A DNA stretch of 63,035 bases, counting the filler, from Stramenopiles sp. TOSAG23-3 (Eukaryota), in NCBI GenBank assembly GCA_900128585.1. It is 10 parts of 10 records of this genome, joined end to end, with 100 filler letters (N's around TTAATTAATTAA, not from the genome) between each part and the next. Parts side by side here need not be neighbours in the genome. Positions count along the whole stretch, not along the records: positions 22,736 to 30,211 come from LT643148.1; 9 more parts are not named here. One strand, given 5' to 3'. The notes under the pieces are model-generated. The model searched no databases and was not told the origin of the DNA. It saw nothing but the letters and a program-made list of their open reading frames with translations. Position 1 is the first letter of the stretch. The number at the start of each line of letters is the position of its first letter. Position numbers and translations under genes: made by a program. Positions 22,736 through 37,402 of the stretch are shown in pieces.

Positions 22736-22736
22736 A

Positions 22737-24038
22737 TTTATAGCACAGGCCGGTCAAGACAAGTATGTTGATTCCAAGTTTTCAGACAAAAAAGTAAACA
22801 CGGGAACATTCGTAGAATTTGGCGGGCTAAAGGGAGACGAATATAGCAACACTTTTTACTTTGAAAAAGCTTACAATTGGCGTGGAATAATGATAGAAGC
22901 CGAGAAAAAATATATCCCCCACTTAAAACAAGTTCGTGACGCGACCATTTACAACAATGCTGTTTGCCCATCGGGCATGAAAGAGGTTAAATTTGCATCG
23001 TCTAAGATTATGGGATGGAGTGGTATTGCCGACCATGTGGACGATCCAAGATGGACCAATAAAATCGATAAAATTGTAACCGTTCAGTGTGTCGATTTAA
23101 ACAATGTTTTGAAAGAGCAAAACATGTTTCATGTAGATTATATGACCGTAGACACAGAAGGTTCGGAGCTCGCCATCTTAAAAACTTTCGATTTTGATAC
23201 CTTTGATGTGACATTTGTACAGGTAGAACGTAATGTAAAGACAAAAGCACAACGTGATGAAAAAGACAGGCTTATACGGTTTATGAAAAGTAAAGGATAT
23301 GGACTAGAAAAGGTATTTAACATTGGAAACCAAGCAGTCGATGTTTTGTTTCGAAAAATTCCGAAATGGGTAGAGTTGTGGGGAAAGAAAGACAAGAACA
23401 AGTACGATACGGTTGCGAACATCATGAGAGAGTTGAACAGTGTTAACATTGACAGCTTTTTAATGGCTGGTTCAGCTTTAGGAGCGTACCGTAACCATGG
23501 TTGGTACCATTGGGACAAAGACGCGGATATCCTGCTCATGAGCATCGACTTGAAAAAAATTGAAGCAGCACTGAAGCGTCTAAAATTGAAACATAGCTAT
23601 ACTTCGTTTGGGTACCATGTCCACATCCCCGGAGTTACCACAGCAAAGCCGTACATTGATCTGTGGTTGTTTCAAGAGAAGAATAACAAAGTCAAATGTG
23701 TCGGGGCAGTGGGAACGAAGGAAAACTGCAACGACTTTTGCAGGGTAGTAGACAGAAGAGTTTGCAGTCCAATGCCAAAAAAATGGCTATACCCACCGCA
23801 ATGGGTGCCCTATGGACCATATCTTCTTCCGACGATACGCCAAGAATACGTGGATTGGAAGTATGGATCCAAGTGGATGACCCATTGTGGTAAAAAACCA
23901 TGCACCGCTTACTTTAAGACACAACAGTTCGTCTTCTTTGATGGTAATAAGGAAACTGTGAAGAAAAACAGCAAGGTTTTGCATACCTGTACAAAAATGA
24001 ATGGGAAGTACACGTGTATAAATAAAAGAGATAAATAA
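22737..24038 (+). CDS. FkbM-family methyltransferase fused to a LicD-family phosphotransferase, 5'-partial
   Basis: Frame open from the contig edge: AQAGQDKYV...GTFVEFGGLKGDEYSNTFYFEKAYNWRGIMIEAE and VDYMTVDTEGSELAIL (FkbM). Then AGSALGAYRNHGWYHWDKDADI, YIDLW and YVDWKYGSKW (LicD). Confidence 0.85.
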   Translation, partial: FIAQAGQDKYVDSKFSDKKVNTGTFVEFGGLKGDEYSNTFYFEKAYNWRGIMIEAEKKYIPHLKQVRDATIYNNAVCPSGMKEVKFASSKIMGWSGIADHVDDPRWTNKIDKIVTVQCVDLNNVLKEQNMFHVDYMTVDTEGSELAILKTFDFDTFDVTFVQVERNVKTKAQRDEKDRLIRFMKSKGYGLEKVFNIGNQAVDVLFRKIPKWVELWGKKDKNKYDTVANIMRELNSVNIDSFLMAGSALGAYRNHGWYHWDKDADILLMSIDLKKIEAALKRLKLKHSYTSFGYHVHIPGVTTAKPYIDLWLFQEKNNKVKCVGAVGTKENCNDFCRVVDRRVCSPMPKKWLYPPQWVPYGPYLLPTIRQEYVDWKYGSKWMTHCGKKPCTAYFKTQQFVFFDGNKETVKKNSKVLHTCTKMNGKYTCINKRDK

Positions 24039-24042
24039 TAAA

Positions 24043-24525
24043 ATGTATACCATTACCAGAACTATTATCCTCTTGTTTTCAGTATCAGTATGGCACGATT
24101 GTCGTCTCTACCATTGGTCTTTCTTTCTTGTAACCTTTTTACACTTTTTAGTCACTTTGGGACTGTTCTTTTATTATGAGAGGGTCCTATCCTATGTGTA
24201 TCCTCTGGTAACAACAGTGTTTGGGGCATTCATAATAATGTCTATCAAACCGTCCGAATGGCTATTTTCGTTCAAATGGACCGACTGTAGCGAAATGTAT
24301 GACAATAGCAATGTTATTGGACGAATATCAATGTTTAGTTATGCATTGTTGATGGCAAGTGCGTTGGAAATATTGGAACTGTCAACGGAAGAAAAACTTC
24401 TAGCATTTCCACCAAGAAGAAAATTGACGTTTAGTTGGAAACTATTTTGGATGCTAGTTGGGTTGGCTGTAATCATGTTCGCGATATGTGCCATTATGGT
24501 GGCTATTGCGGGGGGGTTTACTTGA
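24043..24525 (+). CDS. Small multi-pass membrane protein of unknown function (putative viral)
   Basis: 160 aa with about 5 hydrophobic segments; TATAAATA 18 nt upstream of the ATG. Confidence 0.65.
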   Translation: MYTITRTIILLFSVSVWHDCRLYHWSFFLVTFLHFLVTLGLFFYYERVLSYVYPLVTTVFGAFIIMSIKPSEWLFSFKWTDCSEMYDNSNVIGRISMFSYALLMASALEILELSTEEKLLAFPPRRKLTFSWKLFWMLVGLAVIMFAICAIMVAIAGGFT

Positions 24526-24946
24526 TTTTATTGATCGTAAATGTGTACCCATCGAACGACTTTTTCCACAGACATTTTAACGGCGGTATGTCTATAGGCA
24601 GACCATTTGGTACAGTTGTATGCACGTAGGTTAAGACGAGAATATCGCCAGATTTCCATAGTTGCGAACACAGTTGACTACCACCAATTATCCACGCATA
24701 TTTGTAATCTTTTATTTTATTAATATTAACTATGGTTTCTACACCCGGTACCTTTCTTCTTGATACAACTATATTTCTTCTGTTTGGAAGTGGTTTCTTT
24801 AAGGTATCCCAAGTTTTACGTCCCATTATGATTGTTTCGCCAAATGTATTCATTTTAAACCATTGGAAATCGTGCGATATCCTCCATGGTAATTTATTAC
24901 CTAAAGCGATTTTGTTATCGTCCGATACAGCTAGAATAAAACGCAT
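24518..24946 (-). CDS. dhfr: Dihydrofolate reductase (compact, stand-alone)
   Basis: IALGNKLPWRISHDFQWFK, IIMGRKTWDTL, PLPNRRNIVVSR, WIIGG and LTYVH. Confidence 0.92.
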   Translation of the reverse strand: MRFILAVSDDNKIALGNKLPWRISHDFQWFKMNTFGETIIMGRKTWDTLKKPLPNRRNIVVSRRKVPGVETIVNINKIKDYKYAWIIGGSQLCSQLWKSGDILVLTYVHTTVPNGLPIDIPPLKCLWKKSFDGYTFTINKIK

Positions 24947-24965
24947 TTAATAACTTCTTTTGCAG

Positions 24966-24973
24966 TATAAATA
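24966..24973. promoter_or_regulatory. TATA-like box between divergent DHFR and SNF2 genes
   Basis: TATAAATA, 19 nt from the DHFR ATG and 28 nt from the SNF2 ATG. Related boxes at 24017, 29040 and 30067. Confidence 0.55.
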
Positions 24974-25001
24974 GTCACAGATGGATAATTAATAATAATT
25001 A

Positions 25002-27929
25002 ATGCCAAGAAAGCCATTATTTAATACAAAATTTAAAGTGGGAACCCAAGTTATTTGGAATTCGACAGAATATTTCGTATCGGACATTAACCCAAATCAA
25101 CGGTTTGGACTCAAACTAAAACGTAGATTTCAACCATATCGTCACGCCACAACAGGTGTGCGTCCATGTAACGTTGAGAGAAACACAGAAGGCTTTCGGA
25201 GGAATTTACAGGTGGGAACGTGGCTGCTGTATGATGCGGACACCTTCAGTATACCAGCGATTGTAGTGAAACGTGAGATGGACACAATTGACCTACAACC
25301 ATTGCATGTACGCCACATTATTACCATATCTATATTTTCAAATCGAATAACAAAAACAGACCAAACCTTTCCAAATTATCAATTGCGCTGTTGCTGTTTG
25401 TCTAACAAATACATTCAAGCTCTGGCAAGCTACAGAGGGAGTTCGGGATATGTATTTGATTACGAGGGTATTGCCGAGAGGTACATGTTTATTCGACGTA
25501 ACGACATGACCTGTTTTTGGGTGAAAGAAAATGAACTGACGATACAGGCATTGAACCCAGATCCGTTCTGTGACAATTGGGCTACAGTTGGAGTAATGGA
25601 GATACCATTTCAAGACCTCTTTGTGGAATTAAAATCATCGTACTCAGCAAAATGTTTACCAGATCCGAATTCATTAAGACTCGATCTATGGTTCTTTTTG
25701 CACCAGTCCAACACGAGATGTCTTCGATCCAGTAACAAGGACATAGATGTTCTGGTGGACTTACTATGGCTTGAATTCCATTGGGCGTACTGGAAGAGAG
25801 AATTTAAGCCATGGTTCCTCGAATACGATTATGAATTGTACCAACATCAATCCGACACAAAATTGTTGAATTCCATCTCGGACGACTGCCTACCTTACAT
25901 AGCCGATAGATTGAATCGATCAATTCACGAAAGAAGAAGAGCCTTACGAGTAGAGAATTACATTACGGGCAAAAAGCTATTTAAAACATCCCTGTCTTAC
26001 CACGACAACAATCTCCGGGTGGTTATTCGTATTCCAGAGCATCCAACCCATCGCACTGTCAATCATTCTGGTTCATTCATATACGACTATGTGTGTAGAA
26101 TAATGACCCATTTGTCGGACATCCCCACAATTCTCAAGTCTCCAACTGGGACAATAGAAGTTCCCATGAAACTACCATTGAAAGACTTTCAAAAAGAAAT
26201 TGTTTTTGATATGTTTCAAAGAGAGAAGAACCCACGATATGTATTCGATATAAAAACAAAGATGGGTATGTCCTTCAACATTATAAGTGGCTTTGAGCAA
26301 CAAAAAAAATTCTACGGTGGTATTTTAGCCATCCGAACCGGCTATGGAAAAACCATTTGTACACTGGCGTTAATAGTAGGAAAACGCGTTCAACGCACTT
26401 TAGTTGTCGTACCATTGTCGCTCATGGACCAATGGATATCGGAAATAAAGAAGTTTACCTCCCTGACCGTCTCGGAGCTTTACAACTCAAAACGATATGT
26501 AACAGATAGCGACATTACCGTCACTACTTATGGAACATTGGCATCCATATACAGGGAGTCAGAGTACCATGATGTATTTATTCAATTTGACCGCGTTATT
26601 TTTGATGAGTCGCATACCATCAAAACATTTCATTGTAGTATTGCTAACGCATGCAAAGCTGTTGATGCCAAATACAAATGGTGTCTTACCGCAACTCCAT
26701 ATCGTAGGGGGATGGTCAAAAACCTAGCGACACAAATTAAAATGCTCGGAATAAAACCATTTCATACGAAGAGGTCACCATTTCATTTTGTGAACACGAA
26801 CTACACGGATCTTCCACGAACACGATATGTATTGGATGCTCTGAAAGACCTCGTTTTACAACCAACATTAGAAGTAGAGATACCACAACCGAAAGAGGTG
26901 CATAAGACGTTTGAATTGGATCAACACGAAAGAAAATTGTATGATGTACTCTACCAGAAAATAAAAGAAAAAATTGAAGAACTTTACCAATCCGAAACTC
27001 AAAACTACATGGTAATAAAGTCATTGATTAACAAGCTTTGTATATGCGCGAACGACCCATATCTATTGCCCTTATGGGAATATGGCGATCCATGTGACTC
27101 CGGAACTGTTGCGGTTGATGAATTGCAAAGCAGATTAAATACCACAACGTATCAAAAAGAAGTAAAGGAATCACTGAACAAGTTATCCGAAACTTCTTGT
27201 ACATTGTGTTTTGAAACAATAGAAAGACCTACTATTACACCGTGTCTCCATATGTTTTGCCGCGGTTGTATACATCGAGCATTGGAATACAGTTCAAAAT
27301 GCCCCGTATGTAGATCGACCATCGCGACAGACACCTTGGAAGAAATTACACCGAAATCGGAAGAGACGCTTGAAGATGGCAACATAATAGTATACGACTC
27401 GGTAGGAGGGAAACGAAAAGTGTCGGGAGACATTGCATCGGTGTACGACAGGAAGGGAGAGAGCAAACGTGTTCAATACTTGAAACAACTTCTTGAAAAG
27501 CGTAACAAAGTTGTTGTTTTCTCTCAATTTAATACGGTATTGAAATTCTATTCTTCCCTTTTCTCTTCATGTATAATCACAGGGAGAAGTACAAGAGCAC
27601 AAAGGAAAAAAAATTTGGAACGATTCAAAAGTGGGGAGTGTAAACTGTTCTTTTTGTCTACAAATGTTGCTAATGTGGGCTTAAATTTGGAAGAAGGAGA
27701 TACTTTAGTGTTTATTGACCCCGGGTTAGATGAAGCGAGAGAAGAACAGGCCATTGGACGATTGCTTAGGATAAACCAACGTAACAATATAGAGATACAT
27801 CGACTGGTTACATCGGATACAATTGCAGACAATGTAAAGAAGTGGAGAAGTCGGTACAACTTTCAGCAAGGAACACATACTGAAAAGAAAACAAGCTTTT
27901 TAACTTATGCATATAGATTAGTACATTAA
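25002..27929 (+). CDS. SNF2-family helicase with inserted C3HC4 RING finger (RAD5/HLTF-like architecture)
   Basis: GGILAIRTGYGKT, TLVVVPLSLMDQW, DESH, KWCLTATP; RING CTLC...PCLHMFCRGC...CPVCR; VVVFSQF, GLNL and QAIGRLLRINQ. Confidence 0.92.
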   Translation: MPRKPLFNTKFKVGTQVIWNSTEYFVSDINPNQRFGLKLKRRFQPYRHATTGVRPCNVERNTEGFRRNLQVGTWLLYDADTFSIPAIVVKREMDTIDLQPLHVRHIITISIFSNRITKTDQTFPNYQLRCCCLSNKYIQALASYRGSSGYVFDYEGIAERYMFIRRNDMTCFWVKENELTIQALNPDPFCDNWATVGVMEIPFQDLFVELKSSYSAKCLPDPNSLRLDLWFFLHQSNTRCLRSSNKDIDVLVDLLWLEFHWAYWKREFKPWFLEYDYELYQHQSDTKLLNSISDDCLPYIADRLNRSIHERRRALRVENYITGKKLFKTSLSYHDNNLRVVIRIPEHPTHRTVNHSGSFIYDYVCRIMTHLSDIPTILKSPTGTIEVPMKLPLKDFQKEIVFDMFQREKNPRYVFDIKTKMGMSFNIISGFEQQKKFYGGILAIRTGYGKTICTLALIVGKRVQRTLVVVPLSLMDQWISEIKKFTSLTVSELYNSKRYVTDSDITVTTYGTLASIYRESEYHDVFIQFDRVIFDESHTIKTFHCSIANACKAVDAKYKWCLTATPYRRGMVKNLATQIKMLGIKPFHTKRSPFHFVNTNYTDLPRTRYVLDALKDLVLQPTLEVEIPQPKEVHKTFELDQHERKLYDVLYQKIKEKIEELYQSETQNYMVIKSLINKLCICANDPYLLPLWEYGDPCDSGTVAVDELQSRLNTTTYQKEVKESLNKLSETSCTLCFETIERPTITPCLHMFCRGCIHRALEYSSKCPVCRSTIATDTLEEITPKSEETLEDGNIIVYDSVGGKRKVSGDIASVYDRKGESKRVQYLKQLLEKRNKVVVFSQFNTVLKFYSSLFSSCIITGRSTRAQRKKNLERFKSGECKLFFLSTNVANVGLNLEEGDTLVFIDPGLDEAREEQAIGRLLRINQRNNIEIHRLVTSDTIADNVKKWRSRYNFQQGTHTEKKTSFLTYAYRLVH

Positions 27930-29020
27930 TGAAATATTTTTCGTTTCTTTATCGCTCTTATTCCATTGAGCTTTAAATATTCCTCAAAACTTCCGTCAAA
28001 TTTTTCCCATTCAGATGTCTTTAGTTTTAAACGTAACACATCATTCACGAACCTTGCAATTATCTTTAACGGTAGCTTCCTCGTATTTAAGACATACTTC
28101 AGCATTTTCGATGGTCGCGTTTTAAACAACATACATGATATGGCCATAGCACTGTACATATTTTCCATTGTACATACTGTTTGGTCGAACAACATCAGCC
28201 CATGTGATAAACAACGGTGCTCTTCAGGAAATCTACTGTAAAATTCCATGAAAAACCCCTGTCGTTGATCTGTGAATGGTACGTCTGTTTTTATCTCTGA
28301 CGGTGTAATCTTATAGTTGCATTTTGTCTTTAACTCTTGTAGTGCACGCGTGGTATCCCATCTTTCCGTTGAATTTTCTTTTAACAGACCTTTGATAAGC
28401 TTGTCTAATGTGGTATCCTCTGGCAAGTGTGCAACACATTTGCGAATTTCTGGTAATGTTTTGCCCGGTACGTCACCATACAACATTTGGTGTAAGATAC
28501 ATCCAACCGACCACATGTCTACTTTCTCCGTATACCGCTGTTTCATCCAAATCTCCGGGGCACGGTACCACCTTGTCACCATGTAGCCAGTAGCTTCACC
28601 GTAATCGTTTGCATACTGGCGGGAAAGACCAAAGTCACAGAGCAAGATCTTTCCATTTTTAATCAGCACGTTGTCTGGCTTTAGATCCCTATGCATGACA
28701 TTGTTCTTGTGCATTGCAGACAGACCCAGTAGCATTTGTTTACCATACATCATTATTTTTTTGTACGACAACCCTTTCATTTGTTTTCGCAAGGTAGACT
28801 CTGCCAAAGTCAACTCTACATGCATACAGTTCCATTTGTAGTAAAAACTATGAATAGGAACACAGTAGGGAAGACGCATCTGCAAAACATGATATTCCCG
28901 AACCACAGATATTAAGTCTTGTTGACCTTTTATTTCGGTAATCTTCAACGCATTATTATTGTGGCGGTATACTTTTGCATACACGCCCTCTCCCAGCAAT
29001 TTGGACTGTGTAGAACTCAT
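27926..29020 (-). CDS. CMGC (MAPK/CDK-like) Ser/Thr kinase with a putative cyclin-like C-terminal domain
   Basis: LGEGVYAKVY, ALK, HRDLKPDN, DFGLSR, TGYMVTRWYRAPE and DMWSVGC; KKRK at the C-terminus. Confidence 0.9.
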   Translation of the reverse strand: MSSTQSKLLGEGVYAKVYRHNNNALKITEIKGQQDLISVVREYHVLQMRLPYCVPIHSFYYKWNCMHVELTLAESTLRKQMKGLSYKKIMMYGKQMLLGLSAMHKNNVMHRDLKPDNVLIKNGKILLCDFGLSRQYANDYGEATGYMVTRWYRAPEIWMKQRYTEKVDMWSVGCILHQMLYGDVPGKTLPEIRKCVAHLPEDTTLDKLIKGLLKENSTERWDTTRALQELKTKCNYKITPSEIKTDVPFTDQRQGFFMEFYSRFPEEHRCLSHGLMLFDQTVCTMENMYSAMAISCMLFKTRPSKMLKYVLNTRKLPLKIIARFVNDVLRLKLKTSEWEKFDGSFEEYLKLNGIRAIKKRKIFH

Positions 29021-29568
29021 TTTGAGGTACTTTCATTTATATATATACTCATAATCTTCGGCCATTCCACTTCATTTAAAGTAGCAGCTATTTCTTCTTC
29101 GTATATGGTCGGTGTAGTCACTATGTAGGTAGACATTTTACGCAAATCACTAGCAGTGGTACTTGCAAGTATGTTTAACTGTCTAGGAACACTTTTGTGA
29201 AGTTCTATTAAAGTTAAGGCCTTTTCGTGCGTGATATTAAAAAATTCAATTATTTTTGTAGTATCAATAACCATCGCTTCGGTAACATTCATATGCTGCT
29301 TGTTCCATTTAAAAAATACCGTAATGGTATTACATGTACCCGTACCAAGCACAATCTCAGCGTATCGAATAAGATCGAAATGCATCCCACCTTGACCCTT
29401 CTTCAATTCTATGTAGCTGGTACCGTCGAACGCATCGTAATATCGATTATCGATTGCTTTCCAGTCCAGTACACTACAAAAATGTTTCTCGTAAGCATTT
29501 TTAGGAATAACAAATTCTCCATACAACTTACTAAAGTTATTTTGTATTTTATCTTTTATTTGCAACAT
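29017..29568 (-). CDS. Putative PD-(D/E)XK nuclease-like protein
   Basis: YEKHFC...RYYDAFDGTSYIELKKG gives an E...D...ExK pattern. Likely start at 29568; the track's 29637 start overlaps the neighbouring gene. Confidence 0.45.
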   Translation of the reverse strand: MLQIKDKIQNNFSKLYGEFVIPKNAYEKHFCSVLDWKAIDNRYYDAFDGTSYIELKKGQGGMHFDLIRYAEIVLGTGTCNTITVFFKWNKQHMNVTEAMVIDTTKIIEFFNITHEKALTLIELHKSVPRQLNILASTTASDLRKMSTYIVTTPTIYEEEIAATLNEVEWPKIMSIYINESTSK

Positions 29569-29585
29569 TTTACCTAAAATCACTG

Positions 29586-29906
29586 ATGTCGAAAGAATAC
29601 TTTCCCCTTGGGGGCCACATGCACGATTTTCTTCCATGGAATATGGACGAATTGGAAAACTGGAAAGACAACGCTCTTCTTAAAATCTGGTGGAACATGA
29701 AAATTCAGGATCAAGGAGCAAGCGCTCTATTCATCAAAGGACCTACTTCGTATTCGGCATACCACAGAGATGCGGATCTTCTTCATCGACTGTGTGATGT
29801 AGATTACACTGGTGGATACGTAGCACACTGCGAATTCCCAATAGATAGACTCGAGGAATTTTCGGGACAAATCAAGGCGGCTGGCTACTCAGTACGGACT
29901 CTTTAG
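29586..29906 (+). CDS. Stand-alone MutS domain I (MSH6-type mismatch-recognition domain), degenerate
   Basis: WWNMK...ALFIKGPTSYSAYHRDADLL...YTGGYVAHCEFP...FSGQIKAAGYSV aligns by eye with MSH6 WWQIK...YKVGKFYELYHMDA.IG...FMKG..AHSGFP...YSDSLVQKGYKV. Confidence 0.7.
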   Translation: MSKEYFPLGGHMHDFLPWNMDELENWKDNALLKIWWNMKIQDQGASALFIKGPTSYSAYHRDADLLHRLCDVDYTGGYVAHCEFPIDRLEEFSGQIKAAGYSVRTL

Positions 29907-30048
29907 GCTTTTCCCATGTCTCGCCAGACGCCAATTGATCTTGCCACCAAGTTTCTTTCTCTTCTGCTTCGGCATGCTCATGCGGCAACACATTTTTTCG
30001 TTTTGTCCAAATCTTAGGGTTTTTAATAGAAAAGAATCTACGCAACAT
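29872..30048 (-). CDS. 58-aa micro-protein with a WW-like motif and presequence-like N-terminus
   Basis: Below the track cut-off. My translation: MLRRFFSIKNPKIWTKRKNVLPHEHAEAEEKETWWQDQLASGETWEKPKESVLSSQPP*. TATAAATA lies 18 nt upstream on the same strand. Confidence 0.55.
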   Translation of the reverse strand: MLRRFFSIKNPKIWTKRKNVLPHEHAEAEEKETWWQDQLASGETWEKPKESVLSSQPP

Positions 30049-30211
30049 TTACTAAATCCATATGTATATTTATATTAGAGATTCATTAATTAAAACCCTA
30101 TCAAATGGAAAATCCCTACTTAATAAAAAAATCGAATACAAACGTAGTAGATGCTCTGTATATGAGGACTACATGGTACAGTGGGAACTACCCATACCCC
30201 CCTCTTCCATT

Positions 30212-36151: not shown

Positions 36152-37402
36152 TCATTCGCAGCCCCTCAATAGGTACTTGTGCTCATAAACCCAACATGCG
36201 AATACCACCAGTATATCCCTGAATTCGTAAATTCCTGCAAAAATATTCGCAAAGACACATACCCAATACGTTCTGTACACGAAAGTTGGGCTACGTGCAG
36301 GGCGACTAAAAGCAACACTGATTGCATTCACACCAAGAAGCGCGACGCAAGCAAAGCCGGAACGCAAAAACCCAAAGATAACATTGACGTGCACTATCAG
36401 GGATGCAGCTAAAAACGACAGTCGTCTGTAGTGGAAGCCAACACCAGAGTTGTGCCTTATAGTCGCTGCGTAATCTTTACACAAGACTACAGAAAGGAGC
36501 GTAGAAACAAAAAATATTCTGGGGAAGGGTGACATTCGTAAATAAAAGACGTGCACTGGTCTATACTCAGAAACAATACATTGTCCAATCTCAGCTTTAA
36601 CAAAATTTTCTGGGTGAGCGGGGTAATACGCAACAGTGCTACCGTATGCCCGTTTTTGAATGGGGAATATGTCCTGCTTTCTGACGATATTGTCGTAACC
36701 ATACATGTGCCAGTCGTTCGTTTGAAAATAATGGATGTCTCGTTCAAAATCTATCGCTGGATTCAAACAACTTTTCACGGGCCCTGCTAAGTGTGGACCC
36801 CGATAAGCGTCGTTGTTCGTGTTATTTTGACGAACAAATTTAAAAAAGTCCAAAGATAGTCCAACACTGTCTTTCACATGCCCACAGATTGCACAATTAG
36901 CATGGTAACTCAAGCTCATTTTAGCGCCTGTACGCCTTATTTCTTCTATCATCTTCGAAAATTTGAATTTTCCAGCTTTCAAAATCTCTTCCTGGAGAAT
37001 CGCAAGATCACCATCGTTATCGTATATGATCGGGGCATTGGATCTAATTGCCCCCAGGAGGCTTCCGCTCATTAAAATGGGATGAATTCCATACTTTTCC
37101 ATAATAACAGTCGTAGTGCTCAGTAGCCGTAGCAAACGCTCTTTTCGGCTGCAACAAGTTGCTTCCTCGCTGTAGACGTCCGATCCGTGAGTCCACTGCA
37201 GTGCTTGGGGGTGAGAAATTTTCGCATTGCATACTTCGTCTTCTGAAAATAACCCTCCAATGGTAACTTCATCATGCGTGTATCGGACGGATAGGAAAAC
37301 AAAAGAAACGAAAACGAAGCAAAATGAGAGTTCACAATTGTTTTTCAAGTTGTTGACCGGAGTGAGCTTTGGACTGGCGGAAGTGTCTCTTCGCCTGCTC
37401 AT
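36152..37402 (-). CDS. LicD/fukutin-family phosphotransferase with N-terminal anchor and C-terminal TMs
   Basis: LMSGSLLGAIRSNAPIIYDNDGDLAI, SLDFF and DIFPIQKRAYG...PAHPENFV; three hydrophobic segments at the C-terminus. Confidence 0.8.
   Translation of the reverse strand: MSRRRDTSASPKLTPVNNLKNNCELSFCFVFVSFVFLSVRYTHDEVTIGGLFSEDEVCNAKISHPQALQWTHGSDVYSEEATCCSRKERLLRLLSTTTVIMEKYGIHPILMSGSLLGAIRSNAPIIYDNDGDLAILQEEILKAGKFKFSKMIEEIRRTGAKMSLSYHANCAICGHVKDSVGLSLDFFKFVRQNNTNNDAYRGPHLAGPVKSCLNPAIDFERDIHYFQTNDWHMYGYDNIVRKQDIFPIQKRAYGSTVAYYPAHPENFVKAEIGQCIVSEYRPVHVFYLRMSPFPRIFFVSTLLSVVLCKDYAATIRHNSGVGFHYRRLSFLAASLIVHVNVIFGFLRSGFACVALLGVNAISVAFSRPARSPTFVYRTYWVCVFANIFAGIYEFRDILVVFACWVYEHKYLLRGCE

Follow-up and report, generated by a model that had tools for sequence, protein, structure and literature searches.

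A probable marine mirusvirus genome fragment in a stramenopile protist assembly

The portions of the literature cited here describe mirusviruses as joining a herpesvirus-like virion module to an informational module resembling that of giant viruses, with TBP, histone, trypsin and M16 genes enriched compared with nucleocytoviruses (PMC10132985). For the provisional order Demutovirales, nucleotide, replication and transcription genes are described as retained and introns as few (PMC12768974), and the cited portions of two reports call the host range of marine mirusviruses uncertain (PMC12768974, PMC12911909). The present analysis concerns C2426 (LT643148.1), a contig of the assembly GCA_900128585.1 (Stramenopiles sp. 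TOSAG23-3; here G000), within a window, i.e. the whole stretch of DNA that was analysed, of 63,035 nucleotides in which separate contigs are chained via N44-TTAATTAATTAA-N44 linkers. C2426 probably belongs to a marine mirusvirus that is fully equipped with replication and transcription genes; the genome of this virus is likely free and multi-copy, and the virus was likely infecting the uncultured stramenopile sequenced with it. Marine mirusviruses are abundant and active, and a candidate pair with virus- and host-specific sequences makes the question of their hosts testable.

Capsid module, gene content and lineage

The first 79 bases of C2426 are the last 79 of another contig, C6017, and one open reading frame (ORF) crosses the join in frame. 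Marker searches added C6476 (PolB, RPB2), C6566 (RPB1) and C176, so that the viral set comprises 10 contigs (C2426, C6017, C3196, C3602, C6200, C732, C806, C6476, C6566 and C176; 162,135 bp in total), of which C6566 is tied to the set by markers and a common gene family, without overlap.

Two neighbouring C6017 genes without a Pfam match are candidates for capsid parts (304 and 282 residues). The 304-residue protein (C6017:36748-37659) has 289 environmental homologs, and its structure model (pLDDT 79) gives 27 matches in the PDB at E<=0.001, every one listed being a herpesvirus capsid chain (best 2.9e-5); herpes triplex 2 is also among the best matches in BFVD, and TM-scores are just 0.3-0.44. 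Modelling thus predicts a triplex capsid protein 2 with the herpesvirus fold; the adjacent 282-residue ORF, kept in both syntenic relatives, is a candidate for triplex 1. An ESM Atlas search with the triplex candidate gave leads only (0.79-0.80).

Homolog alignment of the 304-residue protein identified a relative, G001 (IMG/VR record IMGVR_UViG_3300020185_000009, 179 kb); a scan of IMG/VR with the SNF2 protein alone gave no match. Among 15 capsid-bearing records, all fragments, a full-length SNF2-RING match is present in two, a triplex in four and PolB in five. G001 carries, in order, PolB, orthologs of four of the eight C2426 ORFs, a glycan-enzyme gene and the C6017 block, and this colinearity supports the contig joins from an independent genome. 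With VIA-align, the model of a 615-residue G001 protein (pLDDT 60) has three herpesvirus capsid entries on top (Z 7.8, 7.3 and 6.0), followed by phage HK97 capsids; rmsd values to the herpesvirus capsids are 6.2-8.7 over 297-356 residues (6.2 over 297 for the Z 7.8 match). It is accordingly regarded as the putative HK97-fold major capsid protein of G001, for which PDB searches by Foldseek and by profile gave nothing significant. A portal candidate in G001 is faint (PF04860, E 0.03), and C176:3-632, a gene truncated by the contig start, is 75% identical to the C-terminal third of the probable G001 terminase.

Pfam scans of the sister contigs, in batches of 66 and 65 proteins, found TBP, TFIIS, a poxvirus A22-type resolvase, Topo II, PCNA, histone H3, thymidine kinase and Erv1, as well as trypsin-like proteases, Ras GTPases and many RING fingers. 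An M16 peptidase is recognized in the viral set by 53-75% identity to that of G001, which carries in addition a heliorhodopsin, a gene that was not found among the G000 proteins scanned. The informational module is formed by PolB and RPB2 on C6476, RPB1 on C6566 and TFIIS on C732. Within the assembly one of five PolB matches, one of five RPB2 matches and one of three RPB1 genes are virus-like, and these single copies point to one large virus.

The herpes-type triplex on the adjoining contig, together with the HK97 capsid of the colinear G001, places the lineage in Mirusviricota. The preliminary description of C2426, made from sequence alone, had proposed a large eukaryotic DNA virus, either a nucleocytovirus or a mirusvirus; the first part is borne out, and the virus is almost certainly a mirusvirus. 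A nucleocytovirus, i.e. a giant virus with a double jelly-roll capsid, would also have PolB, RNA polymerase, TFIIS, Erv1, resolvase, DHFR, SNF2 and FkbM, as is well established, but is very improbable given the triplex fold, the capsid of the relative and the presence of TBP and histone H3. G000 yielded no candidate for PF04451 (double jelly-roll capsid) or PF02499, in searches whose positive controls were likewise silent. It is harder still to credit that these contigs belong to a compact cellular genome, whether of a bacterium, a symbiont or a small eukaryote: most annotated genes do have cellular homologs, but the joined contig encodes a capsid triplex, none of the 139 viral-set proteins scanned is ribosomal or translational, and the viral RPB2 lies far from all 41 cellular rows of an RPB2 tree. 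DHFR, thymidine kinase, PCNA, Topo II, resolvase, PolB, RNA polymerase and TFIIS, all of kinds described as retained in Demutovirales, are present, and one intron-like insert was seen, in a survey that was not a systematic intron search. By gene content, the virus appears Demutovirales-like.

The virus adds one more member to an established group and is not of a new kind; near-identical proteins occur in Tara and other assemblies, and it may be in published catalogues.

Several other features of the viral set and of G001 were observed. C732 also encodes a SWEET/PQ-loop transporter, an asparagine synthase, a patatin and an Rtt106-like histone chaperone domain, near TBP and TFIIS. A family of about ten related ORFs of 180-250 residues (C6476:4044-4712 and relatives on C732, C806, C3602, C6566 and C6476), with a Cys-rich start, no Pfam match and an end that we take to be an HNH-like motif, probably represents mobile endonucleases. 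C6017:17025-33758 is a 5,578-residue ORF with EGF-like repeats and C6017:4998-10181 a 1,728-residue ORF without a Pfam match; both are conserved in G001. The PolB of G001 (G001:58908-63083; 1,392 residues) is lengthened in frame by about 360 inserted residues, possibly an intein.

Genes and promoters of the contig

The composition and layout of C2426 set it apart from the rest of the window, as the preliminary description had argued. ORFs of at least 100 residues cover 93% of it, compared with 57-76% in the seven other full-length contigs, which hold 20-168 bp of microsatellites each; C2426 holds none, in keeping with the reported lack of microsatellite spacers. Its tetranucleotide correlation with those contigs is 0.17-0.36, whereas they correlate with one another at 0.47-0.75, so that the comparison proposed at the outset separates it. 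The claim that its DNA is AT-rich and unlike that of the host holds for coding DNA (GC 0.35-0.40 in five viral ORFs, 0.44-0.59 in 13 host ORFs) and for gene density, but less so for the whole contig, the GC of which (0.389) is just modestly below that of two host contigs (0.414 and 0.416). The four gene overlaps reported earlier (24518/24525, 27926/27929, 29017/29020 and 29872/29906) are exact, at 8, 4, 4 and 35 nt; there is one further overlap of 52 nt, and gaps measure 4 and 55 nt. The features of the contig are as follows.

22736..30211, no strand: entire contig G000:C2426 (7,476 bp), assigned as a mirusvirus genome fragment
22736..22814, + strand: 79 bp identical to the end of viral contig C6017 (47,019 bp), which carries the triplex genes (exact overlap)
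22737..24038, + strand: 3' part of a glycan-modifying gene, FkbM methyltransferase plus LicD (Pfam FkbM E 2e-14, LicD E 1e-6)
24017..24022, + strand: TATA box 26 nt upstream of the next ATG, also a branch point in source-run contigs (TATA scan)
24043..24525, + strand: hydrophobic 160-residue protein without a Pfam match (ORF)
24518..24946, - strand: stand-alone dihydrofolate reductase, DHFR (Pfam E 4e-30; G001 ortholog 65% identical)
25002..27929, + strand: SNF2 helicase whose two ATPase lobes flank a RING finger (Pfam SNF2, RING and Helicase_C; G001 ortholog 40% identical)
27926..29020, - strand: CMGC-group Ser/Thr kinase (Pfam E 1e-40; G001 ortholog 51% identical)
29017..29637, - strand: 206-residue protein of unknown function (G001 ortholog 52% identical)
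29586..29906, + strand: stand-alone MutS domain I-like protein, 106 residues (Pfam E 3e-5)
29872..30048, - strand: 58-residue ORF with a TATA box 26 nt upstream (ORF and TATA scan)
30096..30211, no strand: repeat of about 115 bp (82-97% identity with ends of viral contigs C3196, C3602, C6200, C732 and C806)

The DHFR, SNF2-RING, kinase and FkbM/LicD assignments of the preliminary description are each confirmed by Pfam, and C2426 carries, as was said there, no capsid or polymerase gene; on the sister contigs the markers looked for include PolB, RNA polymerase and TBP, which were found, and the virus's own capsid gene, which was not. Exact public copies exist for five of the seven complete C2426 proteins looked up.

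The reading frame of the glycan gene starts on C6017 with a hydrophobic N terminus and a first FkbM domain, giving a total of about 796 residues by arithmetic; in the corresponding slot G001 holds a different enzyme. In both possible source runs, 22736-24046 stands apart as its own unitig, half as deep as the remainder, with branches at 22736 and at the TATA box at 24017; the stretch may be a variable cassette that exists in two variants, or amplification may have produced the pattern. The window is 42 nt shorter at 24095/24096 than all four runs compared, in which the additional sequence is in frame; an assembly or amplification deletion is the probable cause, and an intron is ruled out, there being no GT-AG ends. 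Elsewhere in the window a host gene at 36152-37402 also has a LicD domain (E 1e-4). In many protists DHFR is fused to thymidylate synthase, and the viral DHFR is stand-alone. The SNF2-RING domain layout is, presumably, Rad5/HLTF-like. The kinase has a MAPK-like TGY activation-loop motif, conserved in G001 and six cluster members, and the structures nearest to it are those of CDK, PRP4 and MAPK.

Of the 144 viral ORFs, 78 have a TATA box beginning 24-29 nt upstream of the ATG (shuffled mean 4, maximum 13), as do 99 of 160 ORFs in G001 and none of 73 host ORFs; AA immediately precedes the ATG in 59 of the 78 viral ORFs with such a box. On C2426 four of seven starts fit this rule, the SNF2 box lying at 36. 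A literature search on mirusvirus promoters or TATA boxes found no paper. The 3' end of the viral RPB1 encodes 10 YSP-type repeats resembling the Pol II tail, and its catalytic motif is broken by a 58-nt insert with GT and AG ends (C6566:2559-2616).

Together, the TATA spacing and the viral TBP imply nearly leaderless mRNAs, which TBP and the Pol II-like polymerase of the virus would make. The Pol II-type tail and the intron-like insert make a first nuclear step likely, in that the insert would need a first round of host nuclear splicing. From family knowledge, DHFR and thymidine kinase would provide deoxythymidine triphosphate. The SNF2-RING protein may act with the viral PCNA at stalled forks or on chromatin, coupling remodelling with ubiquitination, while the kinase would redirect signalling in the host and FkbM-LicD would modify glycans at the surface. 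Packaging of the DNA would use an HK97 capsid with triplexes.

The sequenced protist and the state of the viral genome

The assembly appears to be of the single-cell type, judging from organism-labelled small runs and its fragmentation. In a quick tree of 43 rows, with taxon labels from partly shortened names, the host RPB2 is placed among stramenopiles (SH-aLRT 99); its clade is environmental and sister to oomycetes, ochrophytes and one further clade.

At least 20 runs from at least 13 studies hold the stretch or part of it, and at least 15 hold half or more of the sampled words; two are possible sources. In these, C2426 has depths of 25-55 (run X1) and 107-231 (X2), against mostly 2-6 and 14.5-19 for a neighbouring host contig, a ratio of about 6-16 that compares contig-level depth with one host contig and is not a copy number. 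An independent metagenome, X3, contains a single 11,590-bp contig spanning 22736-30138 with five differences. The host contig is present in both of the independent runs compared that hold 97% of the viral words (X3, and X4 with 26/30 bins). In an RNA run, X17, 17/30 bins are covered; DNA carry-over being uncontrolled, this is not counted as expression. The viral genome is likely free and multi-copy; the depth ratio and the exact public copies of C2426 proteins do not fit an endogenous viral element.

Of the three states proposed in the preliminary description, infecting, ingested or endogenised, the last is the least likely, which leaves infection and ingestion or attachment. The genes of C2426 look intact, with no decay seen, and neither end has a host flank, the left joining a viral contig and the right being a viral repeat; the virus is very likely not integrated. 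Each of these observations tells against a persistent episome or chromosomal integrant in most host cells, as in Aurantiochytrium, which is considered improbable, as does the single organism-labelled sample with the stretch among the matches listed. A survey of 7,103 eukaryotic assemblies, the cited portion of which reports no high-confidence Demutovirales regions, also counts against this reading (10.1101/2025.04.19.649669). In favour of persistence are the virus/host depth of about 1.4 in X3, the AurliV-1 episome reported, in the portion cited, at about nine times chromosomal coverage (PMC12606086), and the nuclear contact to which the RPB1 intron-like insert and Pol II-type tail point.

A stronger rival, still judged rather unlikely, is that the same mirusvirus was eaten, attached or co-sorted, as a virion or in infected prey, and does not replicate in this protist. 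The stramenopile placement suggests that the host lineage is probably a grazer; the virus is common, at least 15 runs holding half or more of the sampled words; and amplification can over-represent a small viral genome. Against eaten or attached virus are the recovery of one virus over at least 162 kb, at a depth several times that of the host, the host genome in two of two independent metagenomes compared with 97% of the viral words, and pieces of related-virus capsid genes in host contigs.

These pieces come from a search of G000 with the G001 capsid protein, which gave four matches, all fragments. C685, a 12.7-kb contig with the composition of host DNA, carries one piece at 2172-2471, between a polycystin-type channel gene and a WD40-like gene; the 100 residues that this piece encodes all match the environmental capsid protein P0270. 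An acceptor-like CTGAC...CAG lies upstream of the piece. The exact ORF in C685 is absent from the protein collection, which is uninformative in that 7 of 10 host proteins are absent too, and a representative-sequence search found no short twin of it. In C1065, a 550-bp contig, a stretch of 153 encoded residues has 84% identity to P0217, and the 5' end of the contig consists of a repeat present in ten other contigs, mostly of host composition. The remaining matches, in C681 (1118-1189) and at the end of C6043, have a common 24-residue capsid piece with several changes (E about 4e-4, borderline), with a host repeat after it in C681; that they are two copies was rejected, as exactly 79 bp are common, and one locus with two continuations is more likely. 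In a FastTree analysis of short rows with environmental sequences, the two long pieces belong to separate subclades, neither of them within the G001 clade. C1065 was considered as the virus's own capsid gene and ruled out, given its host dispersed repeat, its position outside the G001 clade and its identity to G001 of 66%, compared with 72-78% for PolB, RPB2 and terminase.

The dispersed host repeat is modular, 200-360 bp long, with copies 73-100% identical (C1385, C4429, C77, C5775, C1928, C771, C695, C814 and C6078), and could be a non-autonomous transposon. No further viral gene pieces were found beside it in the ten repeat-bearing contigs, the second halves of C77 and C13 excluded. On sequence grounds, the capsid pieces may record contact with other marine mirusviruses, of at least two lineages, either as insertions or as chimeras with co-sampled DNA. 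Such capsid-gene pieces in or against host DNA are new here. Eukaryote-borne capsid genes are described, in the cited portion of one report, only from outside marine clades (PMC10827195), and the 7,103-assembly survey, as cited, required at least three viral hits, a rule that single fragments would escape (10.1101/2025.04.19.649669).

Several points weigh against an infecting mirusvirus with this protist as its host. A grazer can contain virions or infected prey. Amplification bias can yield depth ratios such as those observed, and in X3 the virus depth of 9.4, with host at 6-7, fits a persistent low-copy state or chance equally. No 18S rRNA was found in G000, and the host placement, as a deep stramenopile and no more precisely, comes from one gene in a quick tree. 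The host-borne capsid pieces belong to other mirusvirus lineages, with junctions known from assembled contigs, and a chimera, too, would account for the perfect identity of the C685 piece. With respect to lineage, the virus's own capsid gene was not found in G000, where all four scored candidates are fragments, the two long ones outside the G001 clade; Foldseek found no capsid match for the G001 615-residue protein (model pLDDT 60), its VIA Z-scores are all <8, and the G001 terminase matches are weak (Pfam E 7e-4, below cut-off; PDB E 0.016).

On balance we lean slightly towards the protist sequenced with the virus being its true host, a link that is plausible and unproven. A broader proposal can be put forward only tentatively: that an abundant uncultured stramenopile flagellate, here sampled in the course of an infection, is a natural host of the dominant order of marine mirusviruses, and that its genome has repeatedly and recently captured capsid-gene pieces of several such viruses, in some cases next to a dispersed host repeat. 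These would be the first direct host link and the first genomic footprints for Demutovirales, and the pieces would possibly serve as a sequence memory in defence. A literature search found no link between mirusviruses and marine stramenopiles (MAST), or between Demutovirales and a host, in titles and the starts of abstracts, with subscription papers and supplements mostly outside its reach. Older single-cell surveys of viruses in stramenopile cells may already list this pair.

Comparison with known systems

The closest relative, G001, has a common gene order with the virus over C6476, C2426 and C6017, identities of 78% for RPB2, 72-77% for PolB and 75% for terminase, and the same TATA spacing (99/160 ORFs). 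By contrast, its FkbM-LicD slot is occupied by GT64 and methyltransferases, only the first 83 residues being common to both, and no orthologs were seen there of the 160-residue, MutS-like and 58-residue ORFs.

With Mirusviricota and Demutovirales, as described in the cited portions of two reports (PMC10132985, PMC12768974), the virus has in common a marine setting, herpes-type triplex, PolB, RNA polymerase A and B, TFIIS, TBP, histone H3, trypsin and M16 peptidases, Ras, PCNA, Topo II, resolvase, thymidine kinase and DHFR, with few introns. It differs in coming from a protist assembly rather than a metagenome bin and in that its own capsid gene was not recovered. The likeness to the herpesvirus capsid module extends to the triplex 2 fold and, in the relative, to the HK97 floor of the capsid protein, but at sequence identities below 15%, and this virus has its own RNA polymerase and TBP.

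AurliV-1 and AurliV-2 of Aurantiochytrium limacinum provide another case of mirusviruses in a heterotrophic stramenopile, again with an episome at several times host coverage (PMC12606086, as cited in part), a likeness drawn without sequence comparison. They are, by the same partial account, persistent elements of a cultured host and belong to another provisional order, Soporavirales (PMC12768974), whereas the present virus resembles the abundant marine order and is widespread in seawater.

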